From IMG/VR virus record IMGVR_UViG_3300014039_000013, positions 64,001 through 128,000 of that record: DNA of 64,000 nucleotides. One strand, 5' to 3'. Shown here in pieces: positions 4,093 to 54,837 of the stretch. This DNA is from a virus (lineage: Duplodnaviria; Caudoviricetes). The translations under genes and the position numbers were made by a program. The notes under the pieces are model-generated. The model saw only the letters and a program-made list of their open reading frames with translations, was not told where the DNA came from and searched no databases. Position 1 is the stretch's first letter; each line of letters starts with the position of its first letter.

Positions 4093-4451
4093 AAATTGGT
4101 TTCCAAATATTTACATGTATTCTTTTATGATTTGGGTCTATAAGCCAATCTATTGTATTTAAATCAAATCCTTGACTTTTAATATATTCTTCTATTTCTT
4201 GTTTGCTTTCAAGATTAGGTGCTGTTTTAATAATATCTACACACAAATCTTTATGATTAAGAATTGCTATTTCCATATTGTGTTGAATTTCTAAAATTAA
4301 TATTTAACTCTTGATCTTCTACTATCATATAATAACATTCATTCTCGTTATAATGTTGATGAAACCAATCTTCTTCTGAAACATTAGTTTCTTTAAAATC
4401 AATTATATCAACACTACAATCTTCGTAGTTTAATACTATAATCTTAGTCAT
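4076..4451 (-). CDS. Two tandem paralogous small hypothetical proteins (4257-4451 and 4076-4276)
   Basis: IIVLNYEDCSVDII versus IAILNHKDLCVDII. Confidence 0.6.
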
Positions 4452-4609
4452 TTGTAAACCCTTTAATTGATGTTTTATTAGTATTTTTTTCTTCTCCTAA
4501 TTCCTCTCTAACTTTGACATTAGTTGTATATCTAATATCTTGATAGATGGGTTTATTAAAAAGATAATGAGTTATATTACATATTGCTTTTCCTTTTTCA
4601 AAGTACTCT

Positions 4610-5155
4610 TTACCTTCCCTTTTGTAAATCATAAAGTATTACTGTGTTATTATTAATAGACTTCTTCACATCAATAATTCTTTGATTTGAACTACCTCTC
4701 CAATAAAGATTTAAATCCTTTCGTTCTTCTATAAATTTACCATCAATGAGTACATCTATATAATTAAGAACCTCGGGTTCATTTTTTAATATATCTTCAT
4801 AAAGATATCCAGTCCATAACCATACTGGTTTGTTAGAAGCCTTACACATTTTCAATAATATTCTAACATTAGAAATACTATCTGCTATATAATCACTATC
4901 GAAGTTTAAATCATCCTTCATTATCCAATATAAAGGATCACCTCCTAATATAGAGATACCATCAATTTTTGGATTATCCACACATCTCTGAATTTTATCA
5001 GCAACGTCTATAAAATTAACTCCTGCTAATGGATTCCAAGTCTGAGGAGACCAGCATCCTTTACAACGGTTATTACATCCTGCTAACCAGATACTGCATC
5101 TAATTCCAGGGCCATTAACAACATCATATTGTTGATACTTTAGTATTTTAAGCAT
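4610..5155 (-). CDS. nrdG: Anaerobic ribonucleotide reductase activase (radical SAM)
   Basis: DVVNGPGIR, CNNRCKGC, GGDP, DVLIDGKF, RGSSNQR; adjacent to nrdD. Confidence 0.95.
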   Translation of the reverse strand: MLKILKYQQYDVVNGPGIRCSIWLAGCNNRCKGCWSPQTWNPLAGVNFIDVADKIQRCVDNPKIDGISILGGDPLYWIMKDDLNFDSDYIADSISNVRILLKMCKASNKPVWLWTGYLYEDILKNEPEVLNYIDVLIDGKFIEERKDLNLYWRGSSNQRIIDVKKSINNNTVILYDLQKGR

Positions 5156-5447
5156 TATTTAATATATTTTTGATTATATTAAGATTTTCATTTGATAATG
5201 GATTTAATTCTAATTGTTCAGTTATTTCATTATACTGATCTAGAAAATCACAATATCTTGGATCATATCCTTCAATATTGCTTTCAAAGACATTTTCACT
5301 AAACATATTATTTTCAATATAATTAATTATATCTGATAAAGTAAAATACCCATCATGTCTAGCTTCATTAATTATATCTTTTAATAATTTAGGCATATTA
5401 AATGTTACCTCGGTTGGTAAATTTAATAATATAGTAATATTATCCAT
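5148..5447 (-). CDS. Hypothetical protein
   Basis: 99-aa ORF between nrdD and nrdG. Confidence 0.55.
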   Translation of the reverse strand: MDNITILLNLPTEVTFNMPKLLKDIINEARHDGYFTLSDIINYIENNMFSENVFESNIEGYDPRYCDFLDQYNEITEQLELNPLSNENLNIIKNILNNA

Positions 5448-5490: not shown

Positions 5491-8400
5491 TTAAAAATGT
5501 TTTACGCGATTATTTATGTCTGCTATTCTTCCTTTAGAAATACCATTAGTTAGAATACCAATATCATTTATACCCCACCTTTCAGTGTATTTATTTTATT
5601 ATTAAAATAAATTTCTATATTATTTTTTTCTATATCCGAAAGCTTACTAATTTCAGATTGAATTACTTTGTCATTTTCTTTAAATCTAAATTCTTTTTGA
5701 AAATAAACTTCACATAAATAACGTAAATATACAGCTTCTTCTTTTTTATTAAATTGCTTAAAGTAATATCTTACATTTTTATATCTAAAGTCTATTTTCC
5801 ATTTAGAATTAGATTTAATTTGAATAACTCCTCGAAATCCTGATTTATTATTTTTACATTTATCCATATTTAACTGGTTGTCTTCTTTATTTATAATACG
5901 TAAATTAGATTTACGATTATCTAAAGAATTTCCATTAATGTGATCTATTTCTTTATTTACAGGATTTCCCATTATCAATCTATGAAAATATTCTTTTTGT
6001 GATATTTGATTACCTGTAACCAGATATGGTTTTTCACCATTATCTTTTAATATGGTTCTCCATTTAAATTTTTTAGCTTCTTCTAAATTATCTTTATCAA
6101 ATATATATGTAAATAATACATTTCCGTGTTGGTCATATGTATCTATTTCACAATAATTGTCTAATACTCGTATTTCATTTGGATCAAATACACCTCTTGA
6201 ATTTGTGTCTAAATTATGTCCAAATTTTATAAACTGATGCATATGTTTTTTTACATAAAAACATATTAAATTTTTTACTGTAATTGACAATTTTTTCATC
6301 TGAAGATATTCCACAAATATCACAAAATTTAGTAGTTTTTCGCATATAAATATAGTTTAAATTAGTAATAAGGGATTAGACTATACCTTCATCTAAATTA
6401 GATGCGCCTTGGTAGTCGTTGAGAGCTTCCCAGTAACTATATAAATATACGTATATAATTTGGGATTCCAAAATTATATTAACATTTAGTTAATAGGCTA
6501 TCTCTGCTGATTGTCCAATTTTCTTAATTTTTTAACATTCAAGCTTATTCTTTACAAATTACTTTGTAGTTTAAGAAACTTTAGGAGTTTCCAGCATATT
6601 CAGCGTTTTCTATATATATCACTATATAAAGGGGCATATTAGTTTACCCGCATAACCTGCGTTCTGCATACAATTTATGTCTATCGGTCTCTCCACAATT
6701 AGGACAACTAAGATTACCTTGATTATCCATATGAATTTCTCCTTCATAGCCACAAGTATAACATACATCGCACGAAGTGGTATTTAACTCACAGTACATC
6801 ATATTATCATAAATACATTTCATAATATTTAGTACTGCTTCTGGGTTTTTACGTATATCTGGCATTTCGCAATAACTTATACACAATTTTTACTTTTTAA
6901 TTTATTAACTACATACTCTTTTATAGATAAAAACTGAGATTTTTTAATTTTATTTTTAATAATTTTTTCTTTTTTCTTTTGTTCAGAAGTATTTTGAAAC
7001 TCTTTAAATAATATTTTCTCAGCAATATATCTAGCACATACAGCTTCTTCTATTGTATACCATCTACATAAATGTATTCTACTTTTACCAAATCGAATTT
7101 CTGCTGCCCATTGATTTCTTGATTTATCTAAATATACACCAATGTAATTAGAAGTATTATTAGACATAAATGTCTTATTGCAAACATTTTCAAATTGTTT
7201 ACAAATACGTAGATTAGACCTACAATTATTTAAAGGATTACTATCAATATGGTCAACAACCTCATCATCTTTCGGATTTAATAATATTCTGTGAAGCCAT
7301 GTTGTTGGATTTGTTTTTGTACAATTTCCTGTAACAATGTATCCTTTTGAACTTAGTCTCCATTTTTTATATTTAATTAAATCTATATCAGATTTATCTA
7401 TTATAAATTCTGTAACCTTTTCATTTCTTTGATTATATACATTAAATATTGCAATATCATTTTTAATAATATAATCATTAAAATCATTAGTTGTTCTAGG
7501 ATTATTGTCTAGAGGTTTACCATATTTATGTATTTGATGCATATGTTTAGAGCATACATCTTTATATCCTTTTAAAGTATATACTTTTGTATTTTTTCTA
7601 TTACATATACTACATGTGCCTATTTTTATTGTATGTGACATAAATTAAAAATTAAAATTAGACTATATCTTCTTAGTAGCGGAATCCGCCTTTTAAGCTG
7701 TGCGCTTGGAATAGGTAATCACTTCCTATCCTACAGGGTTACACTCATCACCCTTAGTCGTTACACCTTCAAGAATTAAAAAATTCAAGCTTGGCACGGT
7801 ATTATCAAAAAGACTTCACCGTTAGCTATTTATAAAAATAACACCCTTGATTAAAAGTTCACACAGTTTTAGGAAGCTGTATTACCAACCTCCTGATGAA
7901 TATTCTTGAAAAGGAGCTTCAAATTCTATCTTTGAATACCCATCAATCTTATATTCTACAGGTATATGATAGCTATTAGTTATATAATCTCTATCATTAA
8001 CATGTTTTTCTATAGGAAATTGTTTTAAAGCATTAGCAAATTTAGTAACAGTGGCTTCTGCAGGAGTACCATATAAAGATAATGCTAAATGATACTTTTC
8101 TTTATTTAAATTAGTTCTATCATACATATGTTTTAATATATCAAGACCTAATTGTTGTCCTTCTTTAGTGCCGTACTCTTTACCAAAATGATAAACACAT
8201 TCTGCAATACCCATATAACCTATAGATGCAGAACAATATTCATCTTTAATAGCTTCACCTATTTTACTTCCTACAGGTAATCTTGCAAAAGCCCCATAAT
8301 TCCAAAGTATAGGAGCTACATCTGTATTTACATTAGATATTTGATTAAATATCTTATTTTGTTCAGAGGAAATCTTATCAATTATATCATCTAACTTATT

Positions 8401-33889: not shown

Positions 33890-33979
33890 AAAGGAGTTTA
33901 TCTACTCAGATTATAACTGAGATAGATATTTTAGAAGATTATTATTCTATTTGCTAGATTATAGAAAATTAAAATATTG

Positions 33980-34051
33980 TTGGGACACCAAGAATTGAAC
34001 TTGGATTACCTGGACCAAAATCAGGTGTAATAACCGTTATACTATGTCCCA
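33980..34051 (-). tRNA. tRNA-Gln(TTG)
   Basis: TGGGACA/TGTCCCA acceptor stem; loop TTTTGGT. Confidence 0.85.
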
Positions 34052-43510: not shown

Positions 43511-46500
43511 AGACAATTTGGTCTTATTTATTACAAACTAGACTATATCTTTCAAACGTAATGTATAACTATATTAAATATAATATTTTTAATATTATTT
43601 TCAAAATAAATTTTTTAATACCCGTTTTTTCTATAATATTGTAAATTTTTATCTGCTAAATCATATAATTTTTTAATATTTGTTCTTAATAGTATTTTAT
43701 ATTGTGTTAATACTATATCATATAACATGGTATCAGCAGAAATTCCAAAATTATTTACATCATATTTATCACATTTGTGATTTTCCCAAAATATAATTGA
43801 TTCTGTATTTAAACCATAAATTCCTCCAAGGTATACTTGATCAGGAGTCATAGTTAAAATTGAATCACATCTGAACATACCTGTTTTATCTGGACTTAAA
43901 TTAATATTTTGAAATCCAGATCCCCAAGCATCTTTATGTATATTTAATAGTTGTTTTAAAGATGTTGCAACTTCAATATTTTCTAATATTTTAGGAGCAT
44001 TATGAAGTTGCTTAATATAAAGAGATACTTGTTCTTTATTTTTATTTATTTCTTTTTTATGAAATATGTTATTCCAGAGATTATTATTTTTCATGTTTTT
44101 GAATTTTAAAGAAAATAGCGTGACCTTTAAAAAAATGCTTAAATCCAATTCGATAACAATCTTTTAAGGAACGTGTACAAATCATAAACCAATTAGATTT
44201 ACCAACGCGGTAAAATGTAATTTTATATTTTCTTTTCATTTTAATTAATAAGATATTTTATTTAATGAATCTATTTGTAAAATAGCTTGATTATTATAAA
44301 TAAATATTATTGTATGTTCTCTTGGATTTATCTTAAAGGTATCAGCTTTAATATAAACAGTATCATGATAATTATTTCTAATTACAGTATACTGATGTCG
44401 TTTACTACAACTAGAAATAATCATACATGATATTAAGAAGTAAAAATAATATTTATTAGTAATCACAATTAACTATTTTCTTATCTTCTTTCTTGACATA
44501 ATGTTCGATTTCTTCTGTTAATTCTTCAACAGTAAGAACATTTCTGTCATAGAGAATGAAAAGGCTACTCATTATCTCTGAGTTTGTCATTTTCTTTAAT
44601 TTTTGAAGGATTTTTCTTTTTAGTTTTTTGATAATTTACTGCTTTATCATCATAGATAGACAAATCATTTATATCTAATTTCATGTTTTCTTATTACTTT
44701 GATGTTTACAGGAATTAATTGTGTTGTAATAGCTATAAATGAAAAGGTGTCAAGCTCTTCAGGATGATTTTTTATATTATGATAATATTGATTTTGTACT
44801 TCTGAAAACGTTCTACCTAAAACTTTAGCTACATATTTAATACCTACATTTATGTTACTAGATAAACTAGCTAATACTGCACAGAGAAATCTTACTTCTA
44901 CTTCAGTCCAAAAAGCATTTTTACGTTCTTCAGGATAATTATAAAAGGAAATAGAAGAAAGTACGTCTTTTAATTTAAGTATCTCTTCCTGAGAGAACCT
45001 TTCTTCTAACAAATTTAAAGTAACTTGTCTTCTCCATACACAAGGACACTTTTTTTCAGCTATTTCTCTATAAAGAGTATTAAATTCTTTTAGGAGAATT
45101 AAATCTTTAAGATTAATATTGTATTCTTTTGATATATTGTTGAGGCTAATTATAATCATAATAAAAAATTTTAATGTTAATTATTTAAATATTACTACAA
45201 TATCGTAGATAATGTTTTAATAAAACAAATACCCCTATTCTCACGAACCAGAGTATATAAACATGTTGACTTTTATCCTTTATAATCATCATATCCCATA
45301 TTATCATAATATATTTCTTCTTGGGATTTGGCATAATAGAGATACTGACCAATAAAGTCAGCAACTTCTTGAAAGTCTTCATTGTTACCAGTAAACTGAT
45401 ATGGTGTGAGACTTTCAATATAAACTACTGCTCTTAGCATTTTCTCTGTAGGTTTACGCAGAGAAGTTCTTGCTTTACTAATTTTCCAATCAGGTCTATT
45501 AGCCAGCATTTTGAAGTTAAGGGCATCATTAAAAGTAGAGAATTTTGCGAGAAAATGTCCTTCTGTATCAAGGACTCTGTATAATTTTTCCATTGTTGTT
45601 TGTTTTAAATTAATAAAAATAAGCAGTTTTATATCATGCTTAGGATAGGATAATTACTCAACCACAAATTCGGCTTTTATTATCTCTTTAACTGGAATAA
45701 CGTTCCAATTATTAAACATATAATTCCAGAAATACAAGTTACCTTCATCTACGAAGGTATCCTTATATCTATCACCTTCATTAAAGTTGATGAATACTTT
45801 GATTGAAGGTAATGTTAATGTTAATTCTGCATCATTAGCGATGCAAAAATTAATTATTGTATCCAATGTTTCTTCTTTCATTGTTTTAAATGTTTTAAGC
45901 AGAGAGCAATATCGCTCCCTGCTTTGATGAATACTAATTTAATTTGATAGATTCCCAACTTACTCTTTTACCATTTATGATAACAGTTGGGATATCTAGA
46001 ATAAGATATTCAATATCTTCTTCTTTAAGAGATACCTCATACTCTTTATTATATGCTGCTATAATGTTTTTAAGCAACATACAACTTATTTGTATTTCTA
46101 TTAGTATGTATAAATTGTGAAACCCTCATACATGGAAAGTTCAGATTCTTTGATGTATGTGATTTTACCAAACACCTTAGTATAATATCTCTTTTTAACA
46201 ATAATCGTCTTAGAGATTTCTACTATAGTTTTACTGTTGTGATTTCGTGCTAAATCATTACGATGAGCACGAATAGAGGATTCATAGCCCTCTGAGCTAC
46301 AAATCCTCTGTGCGTTAAATCTTCTTCTCATTTTCTTCTTCAATTATTGAAGTGAAGCACAAAATTGCAGCAAATAATGCTGCTAAACTTATTACAATAG
46401 CAATTCCGCTACTGTAACAATTGTCTGCTACTATAGCAACAACCACTAAGATTATTGCTATAGTAGCATACAAGAATGTTCCAATAATTCTTAACATAAT

Positions 46501-46853
46501 TATTTATTTATTAAGAGTTACTGCTACTGGACAGCTCTCGCTGTTGAGAGCTGAAAGAGAATCTACATAATTGAGAATCTCTTCATTAGACACTTCCTCT
46601 ACTGTAGAGAGGAAAACTTTATCACATAATTTCTGATATTTATCAGACTTCTGTGAATAAAATTCAGCAGCCTCTTTATATTGAAGAGACTCTGAATGGT
46701 ACTTATTAGCCTTATTGTAAAAAGTGAAGGCCATTGTAAGTGCAATGATGACTAATACAGCCATCATAAGATTTCCGAAATTTTTCATTGTTTTTTTTGT
46801 TTTTATATCCCACAATGTCGTGGGATAAGTTGTTAATTAAATTGTTTTATAGT

Positions 46854-46917
46854 TACGACTCCCGGATTTGAACCGTCCTCCCTGCCTTTAAAGGGTGCTT
46901 TCCTACCAGCTAGTCGC
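46854..46917 (-). other. Degenerate tRNA-like element with a CTTTAAA loop
   Basis: GCGACT/AGTCGT stem, GCT..AGC arm and CGG-TTCAAAT-CCG; arms are shortened. Confidence 0.35.
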
Positions 46918-47818
46918 CTTCCCCTTATCCGTTATACTAATTTCAAAGTAAAAATACTTCTTATATAGTTTATCCAGCAATAAGGGAGCTGTCTTTTTTT
47001 AATTTGGTAGACGATTGGAACAAGAACCAACTGATGATTTCTATAATCATCCTAATATAGAAGTAGGGCTACTTCAAGTTTCTTTTTGTTTGTGGGTGCC
47101 ACCCGAGCAATCTGTACCTTTTAGATATACTATAGATGTACTGCTCTGAAATAAGACCTCTTTTAAATTATTAATGAGTGAGGTAACTCGTATACGTTTG
47201 ATGCATATAGCTATCTTATTTTCGCTATTACAACATACTAAAAACACAGAAGCGTACAAGTCTGTGCTCATACGCTTCTGTGGCCCTTCATCTACGCAAT
47301 GTCGTAGATGAATATGTTTTAATAGTTATTGGATACTAATGCGTACCCAATAACTATTTTCGGACAGCCCTTCTGTAAAAACTGCCCAAGACGGGCTAAC
47401 TTCTTTTTAATGAGTTCGATGTCTTCACTCTCGAACCACACAAAATCAGTTGTTTTTTCTTGACCCCTACAATGGGTCGTTTTTACTATTTTCATATTAC
47501 TTTGTTGTTTTTTTCACAGACACAGAGCCATTACTAAAATAGTAGTTTCTCTCTGTGTTTCATCAATGTGAATTTTAACGTCTCCTGGATGACGAAATTT
47601 TATATTTTAATTCTCGATTTACGGGAAAATAAATTTTAGTTTAACCTAAATAACTAAAAAGGTAAAAATTGTTAAAAATAAGACGTAGTTATACATCTTG
47701 TTTTTAACAATTAAAAATTTGGAATAAACGGAAAGACAAGAATCGTGGGCGAGGTTGAGTGCTCATTTTTAACCATGTTGCTCCAAGTTTTATCAACTCA
47801 GAGCAACACAGTTAATCT

Positions 47819-48316
47819 TTACGGCTGAGTTTCTTCAACCTTATCTTCTACAATGTCAATTGTCATTACTGGTGTTGACATTATTTCCATTTGTCCAAAT
47901 CGTTTGGTTGTTACCCTCTGGATATTTTCAACCCTGAGAGTCTTACCAGCAAGAGCTTGCATACCAGACGCAACGGTGTCATACTTCTGAAACTCAGCTA
48001 CCGCTGTGCCAGAAGCAGATACAGATTGTCCTGTTGCAAGACAATCTTTATCGTACACACGTACATTCTTGTAAAATGCACTAGTGTACAATCTCTTACC
48101 AACACCGTTTACATCAACAATGATGTATTCGGCAAAATACTTGCCGATTTGTTGATGAAACACCTGGTTGTATTCACTTGGCATAGTGAATGTGTCTCCT
48201 TTTTCAAAGGAGACATTTTCATCACCTTTGATGAATGTTTTGGCTGTAAAGCCAACAACCACGCTCGTATTCTCTTGTTTACGAGCAATTTCAATCTCTT
48301 TAGCTACTGTTGCCAT
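47819..48316 (-). CDS. Hypothetical early protein (GC-richer)
   Basis: 165-aa ORF preceded by the conserved 44-bp motif. Confidence 0.75.
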   Translation of the reverse strand: MATVAKEIEIARKQENTSVVVGFTAKTFIKGDENVSFEKGDTFTMPSEYNQVFHQQIGKYFAEYIIVDVNGVGKRLYTSAFYKNVRVYDKDCLATGQSVSASGTAVAEFQKYDTVASGMQALAGKTLRVENIQRVTTKRFGQMEIMSTPVMTIDIVEDKVEETQP

Positions 48317-48366
48317 GATCTAATTATTTTTTAATTATACATATGTGAGTATTTATCCGCGCTCAC

Positions 48367-48410
48367 TTCGCTACGATGCTATCGCAAGGTATACACCCTG
48401 CTCGTTATGA
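48367..48410 (-). promoter_or_regulatory. Conserved ~44-bp motif, copy 1 (copy 2 at 49526-49570)
   Basis: TTCGCTAyGA...TATCGmAAGGTATA.....TGCTCGTTATGA upstream of the first two minus-strand genes. Confidence 0.55.
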
Positions 48411-48557
48411 ATTAAATATAACCTGCTCGTTAGGGTCTCATTTAACTATTATTAACAATTCGTGTGTAATTAAAGAATTTTGTAGTTTGTGTATTTGTGG
48501 GTGTTATAGTGCGGTCAATTAGATAAAACGACTTAGAGTTTATTGTGAGTAAAGGCA

Positions 48558-48639
48558 TTAACTATGGTTTGCAATTGAGAAAGACATTTAACTAAATTTA
48601 ACGTCAACAAATTTTTAACTATGGTTTGCAATTGAGAAA
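48558..48639. repeat. 25-bp direct repeat, two copies
   Basis: TTAACTATGGTTTGCAATTGAGAAA at 48558 and 48615. Confidence 0.85.
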
Positions 48640-48946
48640 AAATAAAGGGTTAACTCATTCCTTTCGGAACAAGTTAACCCTTTATTTTATATCAAGCCCA
48701 CTCTACTTTGGGAAGAGCTTTTTTCGAACCCACCATCGAAAATTCCATGCCTCATGAGTTCGGTGGCATGGATTCATAAAGTAGCCGCAATATATTAACG
48801 TTACGGCTACTTTTAATTCTTTAAAATTCATTGTTGTGTGAATTTTAAATTAAGGGGCATAGTTTTTGCTGTTGTCATAGCCCCCCCCCATTCGGACACT
48901 TCGCTTCGGTTACTATTATTCAGCCGAAGCGGCGGCGCGGTGTACC

Positions 48947-49510
48947 TTATGCGTTCACCCACTCCATAACGAAAGCGCGTTTCGCGTAATCGTTATTGGC
49001 TTTAAGGAACGCACGGCATTGAACGACCTCAAAGACCACCTTCACCTTCTTGCCTGCGAACTTTGTCTTGAAGTCCGCTTGCAATTCGGCTCTGGTGCCC
49101 TCACTGGTTTTGAGCCAGCTTATGAGGTCGTTTGCGGCACTGCCTGACGCAAGTGTGCGCAACCCTCCGTCTGCCAAATTTAGCGTATTCGCTAATTTGT
49201 GCAGACAAATGAGCTGCTCCCCAAGTTTACACCACAGCGTTGGCTGATAAACGCCTTTGCCGTCTGTGCGCTTCTTGGGGTTACCGCTTGCGTCCACCTG
49301 ACTATCGAAATAGTAGGTGTTTAGACTGTTCTCGTCGAGCGAGAATGTGCCTTCTGCCGTTGGTACGCCTGCGCTTGCGAGTCTTTTAACGAACTCGCCT
49401 GCGTAGATTTGTGCCATGCGGTCACGGTAGAGAGCGCAAATTCTACTACGCCAACAACCTGCGCCCCCTACCTTGGTATTAGGAGCTGTTGGCGAGAGCA
49501 CGTACAACAC
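48947..49510 (-). CDS. Hypothetical protein with strongly elevated GC (likely start ATG at 49417)
   Basis: First minus-strand gene at the strand switch; composition unlike the rest of the window. Confidence 0.7.
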   Translation of the reverse strand: MLYVLSPTAPNTKVGGAGCWRSRICALYRDRMAQIYAGEFVKRLASAGVPTAEGTFSLDENSLNTYYFDSQVDASGNPKKRTDGKGVYQPTLWCKLGEQLICLHKLANTLNLADGGLRTLASGSAANDLISWLKTSEGTRAELQADFKTKFAGKKVKVVFEVVQCRAFLKANNDYAKRAFVMEWVNA

Positions 49511-49620
49511 TCTTCGCTGTACGTTTTCGCTATGAATTTATCGAAAGGTATATTGACATGCTCGTTATGATTTCCCATATCGATGCCCCAGGGGGGCTGA
49601 TGATATGATCTACTCCTGCT

Positions 49621-49658
49621 TTCAGAATTAAATAATTTTTTCAGAATTAAATAATTTT
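49621..49658. repeat. 19-bp tandem duplication
   Basis: TTCAGAATTAAATAATTTT x2. Confidence 0.8.
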
Positions 49659-49897
49659 TAAAATTCTAAAAACTATATTATTAATACAGGGTTATTAATT
49701 TTGTTTATAAAATATTTTTTGTCCAAATAAAATTTTTAAATTATATTTATAAGTTCGGAATTAAATATAGGGGGGGATTATAAATATGAACTTTAAAAAA
49801 ATAAAATAAATAATTTTTTAATTAAGAATTATTAACATTTGGTTATTTAATTCTGAACTAATAAATTAATTTTGTAATCAATAATAAATTAATAAAT

Positions 49898-50245
49898 ATG
49901 ATAGAACTTTTAGAAAAATTAGCAACTGAGCTTGCAAATGCAAAGCCAGTAGTATCTGAAAATGGTAATCAGATATTTGATATAGATGGTTTAAAAATTG
50001 AATTGAAAGAAAATGGTGATTCAATTAGTATTACATTAACTCACAATGATTTAGCAGAAGATTTTAAAAAGTGGTGTGATAAATTACCAGACGATGTCTT
50101 TGTTGAAGCTTGTGAACAAATTGAGAATATGAAAGAATTTACAGAAGATATTACTGAAGAGAAAATTTGTTTGTTTAAAAATTTAGTAGTAAATTTGATA
50201 AAGAAACACATTAAAGATTATCAGAATCTTCTAGAAACTCTTTAA
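49898..50245 (+). CDS. Hypothetical protein
   Basis: 115-aa ORF immediately upstream of the suppressor tRNA; no TAG. Confidence 0.7.
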   Translation: MIELLEKLATELANAKPVVSENGNQIFDIDGLKIELKENGDSISITLTHNDLAEDFKKWCDKLPDDVFVEACEQIENMKEFTEDITEEKICLFKNLVVNLIKKHIKDYQNLLETL

Positions 50246-50253
50246 TAGATTAA

Positions 50254-50342
50254 GGCTCTGTGGTGTATGGTTGCACGGGTTGACTCTAAATCAATATAGC
50301 CTTCTGAGGGCGGCGGAGTGGGTTCGATTCCTACCAGGGCTT
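50254..50342 (+). tRNA. Amber suppressor tRNA (anticodon CTA at 50286-50288) with long variable arm
   Basis: Acceptor GGCTCTG/CAGGGCT; D-arm GTGT-ATGGTT-GCAC; GTTGA-CTCTAAA-TCAAT; variable hairpin GCCTT-CTG-AGGGC; T-arm GTGGG-TTCGATT-CCTAC. Confidence 0.9.
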
Positions 50343-50349
50343 CTATAAT

Positions 50350-50649
50350 ATGATTATAGCAATTTACAGAATTAATAATAAGATTTACAAAACTACTAAT
50401 TTAAAGAAGAGTATAAAGAATAAAAACATTAATGAGATTCTTTATCAATTAGATTATAGTGGCAATGTTCAATCTGCTGAAGATATTTTAGATAGATGGA
50501 TTAAAGTAAATCTTAAAGATTATGACAAAAATTTAAAATATTATTATTTTAAAAATAGAAAAACAGGGAATGTGATCAGGTCTATATATGATAATTTAGA
50601 TAATTTAAAAAAAATTATTAAAGTATATGAATATGCAAGAATATCTTAA
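50350..50649 (+). CDS. Hypothetical protein
   Basis: ORF track. Confidence 0.6.
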   Translation: MIIAIYRINNKIYKTTNLKKSIKNKNINEILYQLDYSGNVQSAEDILDRWIKVNLKDYDKNLKYYYFKNRKTGNVIRSIYDNLDNLKKIIKVYEYARIS

Positions 50650-50818: not shown

Positions 50819-50848
50819 CAGGATGGACTTCGGTTCATCCTTTTTTTG
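50819..50848 (+). terminator. Intrinsic terminator
   Basis: GGATGGAC-TTCG-GTTCATCC followed by T7. Confidence 0.75.
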
Positions 50849-50859
50849 TTTTATAAAGT

Positions 50860-53595
50860 ATGGCAAAAAAAGAAAAAACTAAAAGAAGTAAATCATTTAC
50901 TGATTTATTAAATCAACTTGTTGAATCTCGTTAGAATAGAAATGTTGATTTAGAAGAAAAGAGAGACGCTATTAGAAATCCAGTTGAGGATTTACCACAA
51001 ATAGCAAAAAGTGAACTTTAGAATGAAGCAAATTCTAGAACTGTAATTAATAATACAAGCAATTGGAGTATTCAAACTAACGAATATGGATATCCTTATG
51101 TTTATTCTGAAGATTTTCAAGAAGCAATACCAGAAGAATTTTTAAATGATGTATTAGAAAAAGTTCCACAATTAAAATAGGGCTATTAGAATATACGAGC
51201 TGTATATGAACAAAATGCACATCCAACAGTAATAACACAAGGTGAAGATCATTCTAATGATACTCCTTATCAATAGAAAATGCGTGAACAAAATAATAGA
51301 TATTGGGCAAGACAATATGAACAAAACACAGGAGCAGAAGCTCTTAGCGGATTGTTGGCTCCACTTATGCCATCATAGTGGGTTTCTGCAATATCTAGAG
51401 GTATACAAGATAAATCTTTTTTATCTGCATTAGAAGGCTTATATACAGGTCATGGATTTAAAGATTTAAATAGTTCTGCATTACAAGGAGATTTAGGTAC
51501 TGCGGCAAATTTTGTATTTGATATTCTTGGTCCAGTAGCTGTAGGTAAAGTTTTAAAAGGATCAATGTCTGTAACAGATGGTATAGCTTAGGCTTTAAAA
51601 AATAGTAATATAGTAAATCAAATAAAGTTAGGTACAAAATATGCAAGATAGCTTGGATATTTAGGAATGAATATGCCGCTTCATATATTAAAACCAGAAG
51701 AGGCATTTCAATTAGTTAAATAGGGTGTTAATGATAAAGATGTATTAGATTATATAAACACATTATCAGATGATGTAATTGCAAAAGCAGCAAAAGATGC
51801 TAAATTTACTAAAAAAAGTATTGTAAATTTTGGTACACACAGTGCCAGTGATAGAGTCGCTAATGCTTTGGCAATTAACAAAGCTAAATATCCAATAACC
51901 GAAACTCCTATTAGAGATTTAGCAGAATTAAAGAAACAAATTGCAAGTTTAGAATCTAAAGCCAAAACCACAAAATTAACAAGATCAGAAAAAAGTTAGC
52001 TTGAAAAATTAAAAACGCAAGTTTAGCAAATACGTGGTTTAAAAAGAACTAATGCTAAAAATAATTTAACGGACGAATAGTTAATAGATAGTTTTAACAA
52101 AAATCCAGAAGATCCAATAGCATTACAACTTATTAAAGATAAAAATTTATATCCATTAGTATAGAGTAGAGATATTTATACTAAATTAGCAACTGGAAAA
52201 AGAATAACAGAAGCAGAAAGACAACTTATTAAATATGAAGATCTTACTGAAAAAGAATTATAGAATTTAAAAACACTTGATTACAAAAATGGATTTAATA
52301 GTGCTGGTATAGATGAAGCTATAGCAAAAAAACAATCTATTGTTAATTAGCCTACAACGCCTGGATCTACACCTAACTCTACTACAGCTTCAGAACCATC
52401 ACCTACTGTTTAGCCAACCACAGAACCTGTAGCTAATCCAGTTATTGAACCACTGTCAGTTAATAATCCAACATCAACAGCCCCAGAACCTGTAGCTGTT
52501 CAAGAACCAACAAACCCCACAGAATATACTTTTATAATTGATACTCCTACAAGAAGCATTAAACTTAATGTATCAGATCCTAACTCAACTAAAGCATTTG
52601 ATGAATTTGGAAACGAATATGGAGTTGTATGGTAGAAAAACGAATACGGAGAGCTAACACCTAAATTAACAGGTGAAGTTAAAATAGATAAAAGTCAATA
52701 CAATAGGTTATTTTCGACAAATCCAAATGTTGATTTATCTTCTGGGGAAGTTAGAATGGTTGAAGGAGAAAGTAGAAATAAATTTACACATCCGCAAGAT
52801 TTCTTTACAAAACCAAAGAAAAATAAGAGAGGCAAAATTGGAACTTACTTTCTTGGAGAAAAAGCTAGACCACAAAAAGTAAAACCTACACTAGTAGAAT
52901 ACGGTGACGAACTTTATAATTTATACTCTAATGTTGATATACCAGAACACACCAAAACTATTAATTGGTGGACAACTGCTCCAGCATTAGGTGGAACTGG
53001 TTATGGATTGTATTCTTTAGGTGATTGGATTTTTGGAAAAGATACACCAGAAGAAAAAGCAGCAAAGTTAAAACAAGAAGCACAAGAGAAAAAAGCCGAT
53101 ATACAAGAAGCAATACAAAGTGCACGCATACCAATTTATGATTTTGAAGGAGAATTAGCTGATACAGTATCAATTAATATTAATGGTAAACCACAAATTT
53201 ATGCTATAAAACCTACAAATAAAATTGATCCAGAGTACCATCCCGATTCAAATATTTGGTCTGGTATTCCAATTACTATTGATAAAGATGGTATTGGGCA
53301 TATTAGGAGTGATGAACCAACATTCTTTACTAAGAAATATGGAAAATGGATTCAAGTAAACAGTGCTCATGATTTAGCAACTCCAGATTAGTTTTAGCAA
53401 GTTAATGACACAACAAATATGGATAATAGTTTACCAGCTGTTAGTATGCCAAGTTAGCCATCAGAACAAACCCCAACTAGATAGTCTACTCCAGTTCAAA
53501 GACAACAACCAGTTGAACAAAATACTGATCCAGATGATGATTATGTAAAAAATGATTTTTTAAAAACATTATTTAATAATACATATTATGTTTGA
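50860..53595 (+). CDS. Large TAG-recoded protein (911 aa, ~21 TAG), putative virion cargo
   Basis: One frame without TAA/TGA from ATG 50860 to TGA 53593; includes track ORF 52756-53391; has Pro/Thr linkers and hydrophobic segments. Confidence 0.85.
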
Positions 53596-54274
53596 TACTC
53601 CATTTGTTACATACGACCCATTTGCCACATATAATCAAGTTGATCCACCGCAAATAGATTATAAAGAATCAAATTACCAACTATAGTCTTTGATTGACAA
53701 TTTAAAAAATCTTGATTTTAATAAAAGATTAGACGTAGATGATTTGCCTCAAATTGAGAATAATCATGAGGTTAAAAATGATGAATATAATATCCAAAAT
53801 AATACGTCTGACGATAAAGATACTACACAAGCAAATACAGAAACAAAACCTAATAACAAAAAAGCTCAATTGGAATCTGTATTAGATGCTTAGGGAATTA
53901 CAGGGTAGAAAAAAACAACATTACTAAAAATTGCAAAAATCGAATCTGGATATAATCCTAAATCATAGGCTAAGGGTTCTTCCGCTTGTGGATTATTTGG
54001 TTTTATTAATAGTACCAGAAAGCAATTTAGTAATTTAAGTAGAAAAGACTTTTTAAATGATATAGATGAACAAGTTAGGTGTGCATCACAGCTTTATGAA
54101 GCTCAAAAATAGTTTTTAATAAGAAAAGGATTTAATCCATCTCCAGAGGCGATCGCATTAAGTTGGTTTAGTCCAAAATGGGCAATAACATATTTAAAAA
54201 ATGGAGTTGATGAAGGTAAGGATATATTTGGAACTACACCTAGTAAATATTTAAAAAAATTCAGAGAAGCATGA
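53588..54274 (+). CDS. SLT-family lytic transglycosylase, TAG-recoded (228 aa)
   Basis: LLKIAKIESGYNPKS*AKGSSACGLFGFINST. Confidence 0.85.
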
Positions 54275-54837
54275 CAATGACTTAGTATGATAGAGTGTAT
54301 TAGGACGTAAACGCTAGAATCGATACATTATTACCATTATTTAAAAGATTAAAATCATAGTACAAATTGTCTGACACATAGGCAATGGGGTTATTAACTA
54401 ATATAGCGGCAGAATCTGGCGGAAATCCAAATGCAAGAAATGGTCAGTATTTTGGATATACTTAGTTATCTCCTATGCAAGTTGATTTTATTAAAAAATA
54501 CTATGGTAGTACAAACGAACATGCATAGTTAAGATATTTAACAGACGGTATGCGCGGAAAGATTAAAACAAATGATAATAATATTAATTATGAATTAAAA
54601 ATGTTGCAAAAGCTTAATAAAAATTATACAGATTCATTATCTTTTGCAAGAGATTTTCATAAGTATCATGAAAGAAGCGGAAGTCAAGATTGGCCAAAAC
54701 GACAATTGTATAATAAAGCATTAAGAGAAATATTTAAAAATAAATTTCATATTAATGTTGCCTCTAATTTATTTAATCCTAATATAGATTTATATAATCA
54801 AAATATAGATTTAAATGAGCAAAACTATCTCACCTGA
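54271..54837 (+). CDS. Phage tail lysozyme-like protein, TAG-recoded (188 aa)
   Basis: LSDT*AMGLLTNIAAESGGNPNA..YFGYT*L ... *LRYL ... FHKYHER; ATGA overlap with the upstream gene. Confidence 0.8.

Follow-up and report, generated by a model that had tools for sequence, protein, structure and literature searches.

Which amino acid does an amber suppressor tRNA with a long, hairpin-bearing variable arm insert at UAG, which enzyme loads it, and what does the arm do? The tRNA in question is encoded in a stretch of 64,000 nucleotides (the window), bases 64001-128000 of a virus record of 160,403 bp with 27% G+C, terminal repeats and a CheckV completeness of 100%. TerL and the portal protein match crAss-type PHROGs, and TerL is ~29% identical to that of named Crassvirales infecting Bacteroides and Flavobacterium; the genome is that of a complete crAss-like phage. 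Phage suppressor tRNAs and the recoding of TAG to glutamine are already established (10.1101/2021.08.26.457843; PMC7886860; PMC12386605; PMC10879173). In the published literature on phage suppressor tRNAs, we found no long-armed or two-anticodon design. The long variable arm with a loop that copies an anticodon is an undescribed, widely shared addition to the code-15 suppressor tRNA.

The gene was called by ARAGORN as a 90-nt tRNA with anticodon CTA at 50254-50343 (+). Rfam matched RF00005 at 50254-50342 with 38.9 bits, which is above the gathering score of 29 and the lowest score among the window's eight tRNAs. The acceptor stem includes the pairs G1.U72, G2-C71, C3-G70 and U4.G69. The discriminator is U73 (position 50342) and is followed by CUAUAAU, so CCA is not encoded. 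The D stem, GUGU/GCAC, has 4 bp (3 bp in the ARAGORN drawing) and closes a small D loop of 6 nt; the GG that joins it to the anticodon stem is one base more than usual. The variable-arm hairpin has three G-C pairs followed by optional U.G and U-A pairs. The T arm is GUGGG-UUCGAUU-CCUAC, and the acceptor/T branch is split 7/5. The original prediction had listed the CTA anticodon, a variable arm of ~22 nt with its own hairpin, G1-U72, U73, the extra base and the absence of CCA, all correctly. Alternative folds with an 8/4 branch or a long D stem were tried by hand, and none form. ARAGORN's tRNA-Pyl label was rejected as well: it follows the anticodon only, and the variable region has 22 nt versus the 3-nt loop and tiny D loop of the Pyl type. 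The minimum-free-energy fold is unremarkable (z = 0.03), as is usual for tRNAs, and support for the cloverleaf comes from covariation within the family in place of fold energy. All 89 nt are identical (100%) in four other assemblies (L329-L332), so the gene is not an assembly artefact; these include a relative in which identity falls to 76% for the neighboring 911-aa protein. No deposited phage was matched by the tRNA region in a blastn search. Judged by the ARAGORN call, the Rfam match and this conservation, the tRNA is real and under selection. Coordinates of the locus are collected in Table 1.

Table 1. Features of the suppressor tRNA locus and related genes (window coordinates)
Feature	Position	Strand	Evidence
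Amber suppressor tRNA(CUA), 89 nt to the discriminator, CCA unencoded	50254..50342	+	ARAGORN, Rfam RF00005, identity in L329-L332, family covariation
Acceptor stem, 5' strand GGCUCUG	50254..50260	+	Pairs with 50335-50341 CAGGGCU; sequence
Anticodon arm GUUGA-CUCUAAA-UCAAU, anticodon CUA at 50286-50288	50279..50295	+	Sequence, ARAGORN
Variable region, 22 nt: AUA linker, hairpin 50299-50311, GGCGGA tail	50296..50317	+	ARAGORN drawing, sequence, hairpin analysis
Variable-arm hairpin GCCUU[CUG]AGGGC	50299..50311	+	Family invariance of U-G-A, stem covariation
Ordinary phage tRNA-Gln(UUG): U1-A72, G2-C71, G3-C70, A73	33979..34051	-	ARAGORN, sequence
115-aa ORF without TAG, stop 9 nt before the tRNA	49898..50245	+	ORF reading; order kept in L329-L332 and L334
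99-aa ORF without TAG, begins 8 nt past the tRNA	50350..50649	+	ORF reading
Terminator-like hairpin and T run, after the tRNA unit and before the first long recoded ORF	50820..50841	+	Consensus match only
First long recoded late ORF, 911 aa, 21 in-frame TAG	50860..53595	+	TAG-as-sense ORFs
Two lysis-type ORFs with in-frame TAG: transglycosylase-like; Phage_lysozyme2	53588..54837	+	ORFs, family matches

Long ORFs that appear when TAG is read as sense are confined to one block, which starts at genome position 114,860, crosses the origin and ends at ~46,054. The 52 late ORFs contain about 431 in-frame TAG codons versus 873 CAA and 79 CAG. Two adjacent giant ORFs (L004 and L005; genome 22232-30871 and 30871-40242) encode 2879 and 3123 aa and include 43 and 53 TAG codons, which calls for near-complete read-through of each UAG, although the phage has no release-factor gene. 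The suppressor tRNA is positioned at the head of this recoded late block, and the first heavily recoded ORF (50860-53595) starts ~500 nt downstream of it. As originally predicted, it stands apart from the seven other tRNAs of the window, all of them minus-strand genes at 33.5-43.4 kb; the suppressor alone is on the plus strand. The plus-strand unit comprises, in order, the 115-aa ORF, the tRNA, the 99-aa ORF, a 50-aa ORF, the terminator-like hairpin and the 911-aa ORF, and downstream of the latter lie transglycosylase-like, lysozyme-like and NlpC/P60 genes, all of which contain TAG. Borges et al. described a "code change module" upstream of the lysis cassette (10.1101/2021.08.26.457843), and the arrangement of tRNA and lysis genes here agrees with that layout. 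Promoter-like sites near the tRNA are no commoner than in shuffled sequence, and Rfam found no ribozyme or intron beside it.

Two other features of the genome were observed. Window positions 46000-50000 have a G+C content of 0.34-0.38 versus ~0.25 elsewhere, just before a strand switch and a change of GC-skew sign at ~50 kb; this stretch, which holds a 187-aa ORF (48947-49510, minus strand) with no family match, may have been acquired recently or may contain an origin. An RT-17 RNA (Rfam, 42.8 bits; L002:4009-4089) overlaps the start of a reverse transcriptase ORF (phrog_1423; L002:4020-5294) with four in-frame TAG codons; the two, at genome 148,009-149,294, are probably a diversity-generating retroelement.

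The meaning of TAG was determined from codons. Gene calls in the public protein collection translate TAG as Q, which makes protein-level tallies circular, and codon-level tallies were therefore used instead. A search of viral contigs with the single TerL protein returned nothing, and an alignment-based search succeeded. Eighty TerL loci were taken as DNA and their codons aligned to the 11 TAGs of the phage TerL; the standard-code set comprised the 43 loci without in-frame TAG, representing 28 distinct codon patterns. In these standard-code relatives, CAA or CAG accounts for 124 of the 267 codons opposite the TAGs, followed by K (29), R (26) and E (22); Ser is found 5 times, Leu once and Tyr 0 times. 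TerL column 171, which is invariant in the family, is Gln in 28/28 patterns, the BLOSUM62 sum is best for Q (649 versus 320 for E), and TAG and CAA interchange at the same columns in recoded TerL relatives. By this comparison with standard-code relatives, TAG is read as glutamine in the late genes, in agreement with the original prediction, and the late genes of the window should be annotated with TAG = Gln. That prediction had also described the anticodon loop as having a Tyr-like context. The likeness is superficial, since CU-CUA-AA is found across the family described below, in which the acceptor and D arms are closest to phage tRNA-Gln more often than to any other tRNA, and no Tyr codon stands opposite a TAG.

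No second suppressor tRNA was found by ARAGORN in the whole genome, by Rfam in the window and the remaining genome, or by a scan for CUA-type arms and for split-tRNA exons of the kind seen in a sister phage. The tRNA(CUA) is the sole detectable suppressor of this phage; another canonical one elsewhere, named in the original prediction as a possible source of the read-through, was not found by these searches. A hairpin resembling an anticodon arm, UGUAUG-CUCUAAA-CAUAUG, lies in an early ORF at window position 7552 (minus strand; genome 71552) without support from tRNA finders and is probably due to chance. When a 15-nt anticodon-arm pattern was run against viral contigs, it returned mainly chance matches and only short CUA tRNAs. 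The call of a non-canonical amber suppressor is upheld by the ARAGORN anticodon, the Rfam score of 38.9 bits and the TAG-recoded late ORFs.

In order to find other long-armed suppressors, viral contigs were searched with a pattern consisting of a fixed anticodon loop, a gap of 20-36 nt and a T loop, which left the variable region unconstrained. This identified 63 viral loci with CUA tRNAs of 82-97 nt, and the CUA loci gain ORF cover when TAG is read as sense. In 30 aligned family members, 93.6% of alignment cells are paired versus 67% in shuffles and 38-48% in slid controls, and compensatory changes occur in all five helices, although such counts overstate independence because the members are related. 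The variable-arm stem takes part in this covariation (columns 56-66: CG 19, GC 8, UA 2; columns 57-65: CG 23, GC 4, UA 2). The 1:72 pair of the 30 members is UA in 16, AU in 5, GU in 2 and a mismatch in 7, and is never G-C. A covariance model (R1) matches all tRNAs, and only a score of at least 75 bits separates the long-armed family; with that threshold, a long-armed member was present in only 7/50 TerL-related records, and all seven (7/7) are TAG-recoded.

The loop of the variable arm is as conserved as the anticodon and T loops. U-G-A is invariant there in 30/30 members, and the base that precedes it is C in 26 and U in 4. Gln has two anticodons, CUG and UUG, and these are the triplets that result; the A that follows occupies the place of A37. 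In the window tRNA, the copy is CUG at 50304-50306 followed by A50307, a feature that the original prediction overlooked. Six members (L128, L139, L150, L158, L176 and L178) have the variable loop CUCUGAA, which matches the anticodon loop of the same tRNA, CUCUAAA, except that A36 is replaced by G. An automatic picker found YUG in a hairpin loop in 29/34 members versus a mean of 2.7 and a maximum of 8 in shuffles, and 3/5 of the members it missed visibly carry CUGAA within an interrupted stem. In a comparison that pooled viral matches with those from genome collections, a YUG loop goes together with a 1:72 pair other than G-C (35/41 versus 6/18; Fisher p = 1.4e-4, the sequences not being independent). 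Long-armed CUA tRNAs with G1-C72, A73 and a type II D arm resemble derivatives of Tyr, Leu or Ser tRNAs and mostly have no YUG. Some family members have variable loops of 3-5 nt, too small to copy a 7-nt anticodon loop.

The window tRNA has all of the family traits: CUA, a 1:72 pair other than G-C and a C/U-U-G-A variable loop. Its nearest relatives (L148, L173, L186 and L413) have in common with it the D arm and the GG spacer, and in L173 the variable stem differs by a compensatory change (GCC/GGC to GUC/GAC). All four have U1-A72 or A1-U72 with A73, so G1.U72 with U73 is a derived state, and the 100% identity of the gene in the relative with the 76% identical protein shows it to be fixed in the lineage of this phage. 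In crude comparisons of acceptor, D and T arms, tRNA-Gln ranks first for 16/40 members of the family and Tyr for none; the pairwise ranking for the window tRNA gives Leu 25, Lys 17 and Gln 17, so that its arms show no clear likeness to Gln. Four contigs (L373, L374, L408 and L412) of MAGs labelled Methanobacteriaceae, Alistipes and Bacillota carry a further long-armed CUA subfamily, in which the 1:72 pair is U1.G72 or U1-A72 and UUG is centered in a 7-nt variable loop; these contigs are probably phage DNA binned into MAGs.

The same pattern search was repeated with a UCA anticodon. Most matches were bacterial tRNA-Sec. All four (4/4) of the long-armed UCA tRNAs that are not tRNA-Sec (L297, L302, L311 and L323) have U-CCA-A(A) in the variable-arm loop, which thus contains CCA, the anticodon of tRNA-Trp; two, L311 and L323, are labelled SeC by ARAGORN. 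Reading TGA as sense gives a clear gain in ORF cover at 3/4 of these loci and a small one at L302. With CUG or UUG accompanying CUA, CCA accompanying UCA, and the gains in ORF cover, the loop triplet follows the amino acid assigned to the stop codon.

Not every recoded relative has the arm. In the sister phage L334, whose TerL is 80% identical, the syntenic site (4323-5364, plus strand) encodes a CUA tRNA with a short variable loop, from which it follows that the long arm is not indispensable for TAG = Gln. The anticodon loop of that tRNA is split after CUCU by ~970 nt with a 268-aa ORF that has weak HNH and NUMOD1 matches; the insert resembles an intron that encodes a homing endonuclease. No group I intron was recognized by Rfam in the split tRNA, and ARAGORN miscalls its 3' half as tRNA-Cys. 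Short and long forms also occur together. CUA tRNA genes of 73 nt and 89 nt lie 5 nt apart in three contigs (L142, L164 and L183), and a short and a long CUA tRNA lie ~430 nt apart in three others (L129, L180 and L181). This suggests that short-loop tRNAs and long-armed tRNAs with a CUG loop are not redundant and have distinct roles.

We then turn to the loading enzyme. Six-frame searches of the complete genome at E <= 1 found no tRNA-synt_1c (Glu/Gln; PF00749), tRNA-synt_1b (Tyr/Trp; PF00579), tRNA-synt_1 (Ile/Leu/Val; PF00133) or tRNA-synt_2b (Ser/Thr/Pro/His/Gly; PF00587), and no GatB_N (PF02934), RF-1 (PF00472) or CCA-adding family, and the controls behaved as expected. GatB was absent from the E. 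coli and Bacteroides thetaiotaomicron controls, which is consistent with hosts using GlnRS directly. A GlnRS/GluRS-like or release-factor gene elsewhere in the genome, which had been suggested as something to look for, is thus not found at this threshold. Since the phage has no synthetase, host enzymes must mature the tRNA(CUA), add its CCA tail and load it. We consider it very probable that this is a real, functional suppressor that inserts Gln and is loaded by a host enzyme, most likely the GlnRS of a Bacteroidota-type host. The original prediction held that charging with Gln might need either a dedicated phage synthetase or unusual recognition. Unusual recognition probably applies, because the variable loop of tRNA-Gln is normally short, as was correctly stated; a dedicated phage synthetase finds no support in the six-frame searches.

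Measured against the E. coli enzyme, the identity elements of the tRNA are a mixture. E. coli GlnRS finds its determinants in the anticodon bases U35 and G36, the 10-25 pair and the acceptor end, and activity drops by up to 1e5-fold when they are mutated (PMC9976931). The weak 1:72 pair (U1-A72 in E. coli) has its counterpart in G1.U72, and G10-C25 and U35 are present. Among G73, G2-C71 and G3-C70, only G2-C71 is found, the window tRNA having U73 and C3-G70. Since the ordinary tRNA-Gln(UUG) of the phage itself has A73, the discriminator rule of the host may differ from that of E. coli. Position 36 is A, as it must be in an amber suppressor, and a "G36" exists only within the CUG of the variable arm. 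The variable loop, 4-5 nt in tRNA-Gln, has 22 nt.

The tRNA(CUA) probably serves as the phage's own decoder of UAG, made from a small standard-code unit on the plus strand at the early/late boundary, so that the late structural, packaging and lysis genes, with their ~431 in-frame TAG codons, would be translated with TAG = Gln. The family has retained a weak or mismatched 1:72 pair, as in tRNA-Gln, and its CUA anticodon leaves it without G36, a strong GlnRS determinant. The added hairpin, whose loop Y-U-[C/U]UG-A-R copies the Gln anticodon loop, may offer this missing determinant to GlnRS in cis or otherwise restore it, and loading might thereby become good enough for hundreds of UAG codons. 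According to PMC1483225, which cites Rould et al. 1991, binding of GlnRS extends the anticodon stem by 32-38 and 33-37 pairs and leaves the three anticodon bases free. The hairpin GCCUU[CUG]AGGGC can likewise form U.G and U-A pairs beneath a three-base CUG, resembling the enzyme-bound Gln anticodon arm. To be read by an enzyme that binds the opposite face of the tRNA, the arm would need to turn about its linkers, which are unpaired for 3 nt (5') and 6 nt (3'), or else take the place of the true anticodon arm during loading; it might also act in some other way. Taken whole, a host-loaded Gln suppressor with a spare anticodon loop that aids loading is our best explanation, and we lean slightly towards its being correct; U73 and C3-G70 in place of the E. 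coli determinants, arms without a clear likeness to Gln, and the 3-5-nt loops of some family members count against it. For the single step that the extra loop acts in loading, to which the loop sequence points, our judgement is nearly balanced, with doubt a shade ahead. More generally, stop-reassigning phages may use a cis "spare anticodon" (CUG or UUG for GlnRS, CCA for TrpRS) that is shown to the host synthetase while the true arm reads the stop codon, a generalization that we offer tentatively.

The rival that survives best accepts that the extra arm is under selection and gives it a role outside loading, with Gln loaded through the acceptor end and U35 alone. The arm might be a cis decoy or shield against anticodon-loop nucleases of the host or of rival phages, a site for a phage protein, an aid in competition with RF1 or in the use of EF-Tu or the ribosome, or an element for processing or stability. 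GlnRS, like other class I synthetases, docks on the face of the tRNA opposite the variable region, and this geometry makes direct reading of the extra loop in a canonical complex doubtful. Short-armed CUA tRNAs, including that of the sister phage at the same site, also serve phages with TAG = Gln, and short and long forms stand side by side in the six contigs named above. E. coli amber suppressors, furthermore, are often loaded with Gln or Lys (Normanly et al. 1990, cited in PMC1483225) and take them without an extra arm. Weighing against such a role, the loop triplet tracks the amino acid (CUG or UUG with CUA, CCA with UCA), as would be predicted by a role in identity and not by most other roles, and no candidate partner protein was identified. 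We regard a role outside loading as unlikely, though it deserves serious attention.

That a phage enzyme of an unrecognized family loads the tRNA, the two making a natural orthogonal pair as the original prediction proposed, is very improbable. Many phage ORFs have no family assignment, and a small number of recoded phages do encode synthetases according to Borges et al. (10.1101/2021.08.26.457843); however, the six-frame searches returned nothing for PF00749, PF00579, PF00133, PF00587, PF02934 or PF00472 at E <= 1, leaving a host enzyme as the probable loader, and the anticodon-copy design points to a reader of the normal Gln anticodon, that is, the host's. Slightly less credible again is a type II tRNA, derived from Tyr, Ser or Leu tRNA like supF, supD or supP and inserting one of these amino acids. 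The long variable arm and the supF-like CU-CUA-AA loop would fit such an origin, a phage tRNA-Leu comes first when acceptor, D and T arms are compared crudely, and canonical type II CUA suppressors do exist elsewhere (for example, L369 and L400). The codons aligned with TAG are nevertheless those of Gln, with Tyr at 0, Ser at 5 and Leu at 1 of 267; the discriminator is U73 versus A73 (Tyr, Leu) or G73 (Ser); the small D arm with its 4-bp stem is unlike that of bacterial type II tRNAs; and G1.U72 is found here where type II-like suppressors have G1-C72 and mostly no YUG. Least believable is a decayed or unused gene, with read-through owed to a host suppressor or an undetected tRNA: the lowest Rfam score of the eight tRNAs (38.9 bits) and the unusual discriminator would suit it, and against it stand the 100% identity kept in a relative that shows only 76% in the adjacent protein, the intact stems, the absence of any other suppressor among those searched for and the ~431 in-frame TAG codons that need a decoder.

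The spare-anticodon reading provides a concrete hypothesis for how an anticodon-dependent host enzyme could load a code-15 stop reader efficiently, and it bears on how one tRNA copes with the hundreds of UAG codons in a genome, of which one ORF alone has as many as 53. If true, the copied anticodon would be a tRNA identity element of a new class. The reading would then account for odd isotypes assigned by tRNA finders, or tRNAs missed by them, and would provide a natural template or design rule for efficient suppressor tRNAs in genetic code expansion.

In classical genetics, mischarging mutants of the su+3 (supF) tRNA-Tyr insert Gln once the 1:72 pair is weakened, for example to G1.U72, and a long arm is therefore no bar to GlnRS. 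Like the window tRNA, these mutants have a long arm, a CUA anticodon and a weak 1:72 pair; they are laboratory products and true tRNA-Tyr with a type II D arm, whereas the window tRNA is natural and has a small D arm and a different variable arm. Type II tRNAs (Leu, Ser, bacterial Tyr, Sec) and allo-tRNAs (PMC5389517) likewise have a long, hairpin-bearing variable arm. Of the type II characters (a 3-bp D stem with a long loop, A73 or G73, a strong 1:72 pair and the long arm), only the arm is present here, and in place of the 12-bp branch of allo-tRNAs, split 8/4 or 9/3, the split is 7/5; the window tRNA further differs from both groups in its small D arm, its weak 1:72 pair and a loop that is a conserved anticodon copy rather than variable. 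Suppressor tRNAs associated with theta ribozymes (PMC10879173) are code-15 suppressors of gut phages, as is this one, which differs in having no Rfam ribozyme beside it and an ORF that starts 8 nt downstream. A few of the tRNA-Sup in the theta-ribozyme work were called as "Tyr" isotypes (PMC10879173), and long arms could explain such calls. E. coli supE, a tRNA-Gln with CUA, resembles the window tRNA in keeping U35, in a weak first pair that favors GlnRS and in inserting Gln at UAG, and departs from it in a variable loop of 4-5 nt, G73 and G3-C70, versus 22 nt with a CUG loop, U73 and C3-G70. The closest match is the tRNA-Sup(CUA) of code-15 phages (crAss-like, Lak and others; 10.1101/2021.08.26.457843, PMC7886860, PMC12386605), to which the window tRNA belongs by its CUA anticodon, the genes with in-frame TAG and the glutamine opposite TAG in homologues. 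Those tRNAs, too, lie in a standard-code context beside recoded late or lysis genes, read TAG as Gln and come without a phage synthetase, host GlnRS being the presumed loader. The published code-15 tRNA-Sup have been treated as an ordinary Gln isotype with a short variable loop, whereas the window tRNA is long-armed and carries an anticodon-like loop.
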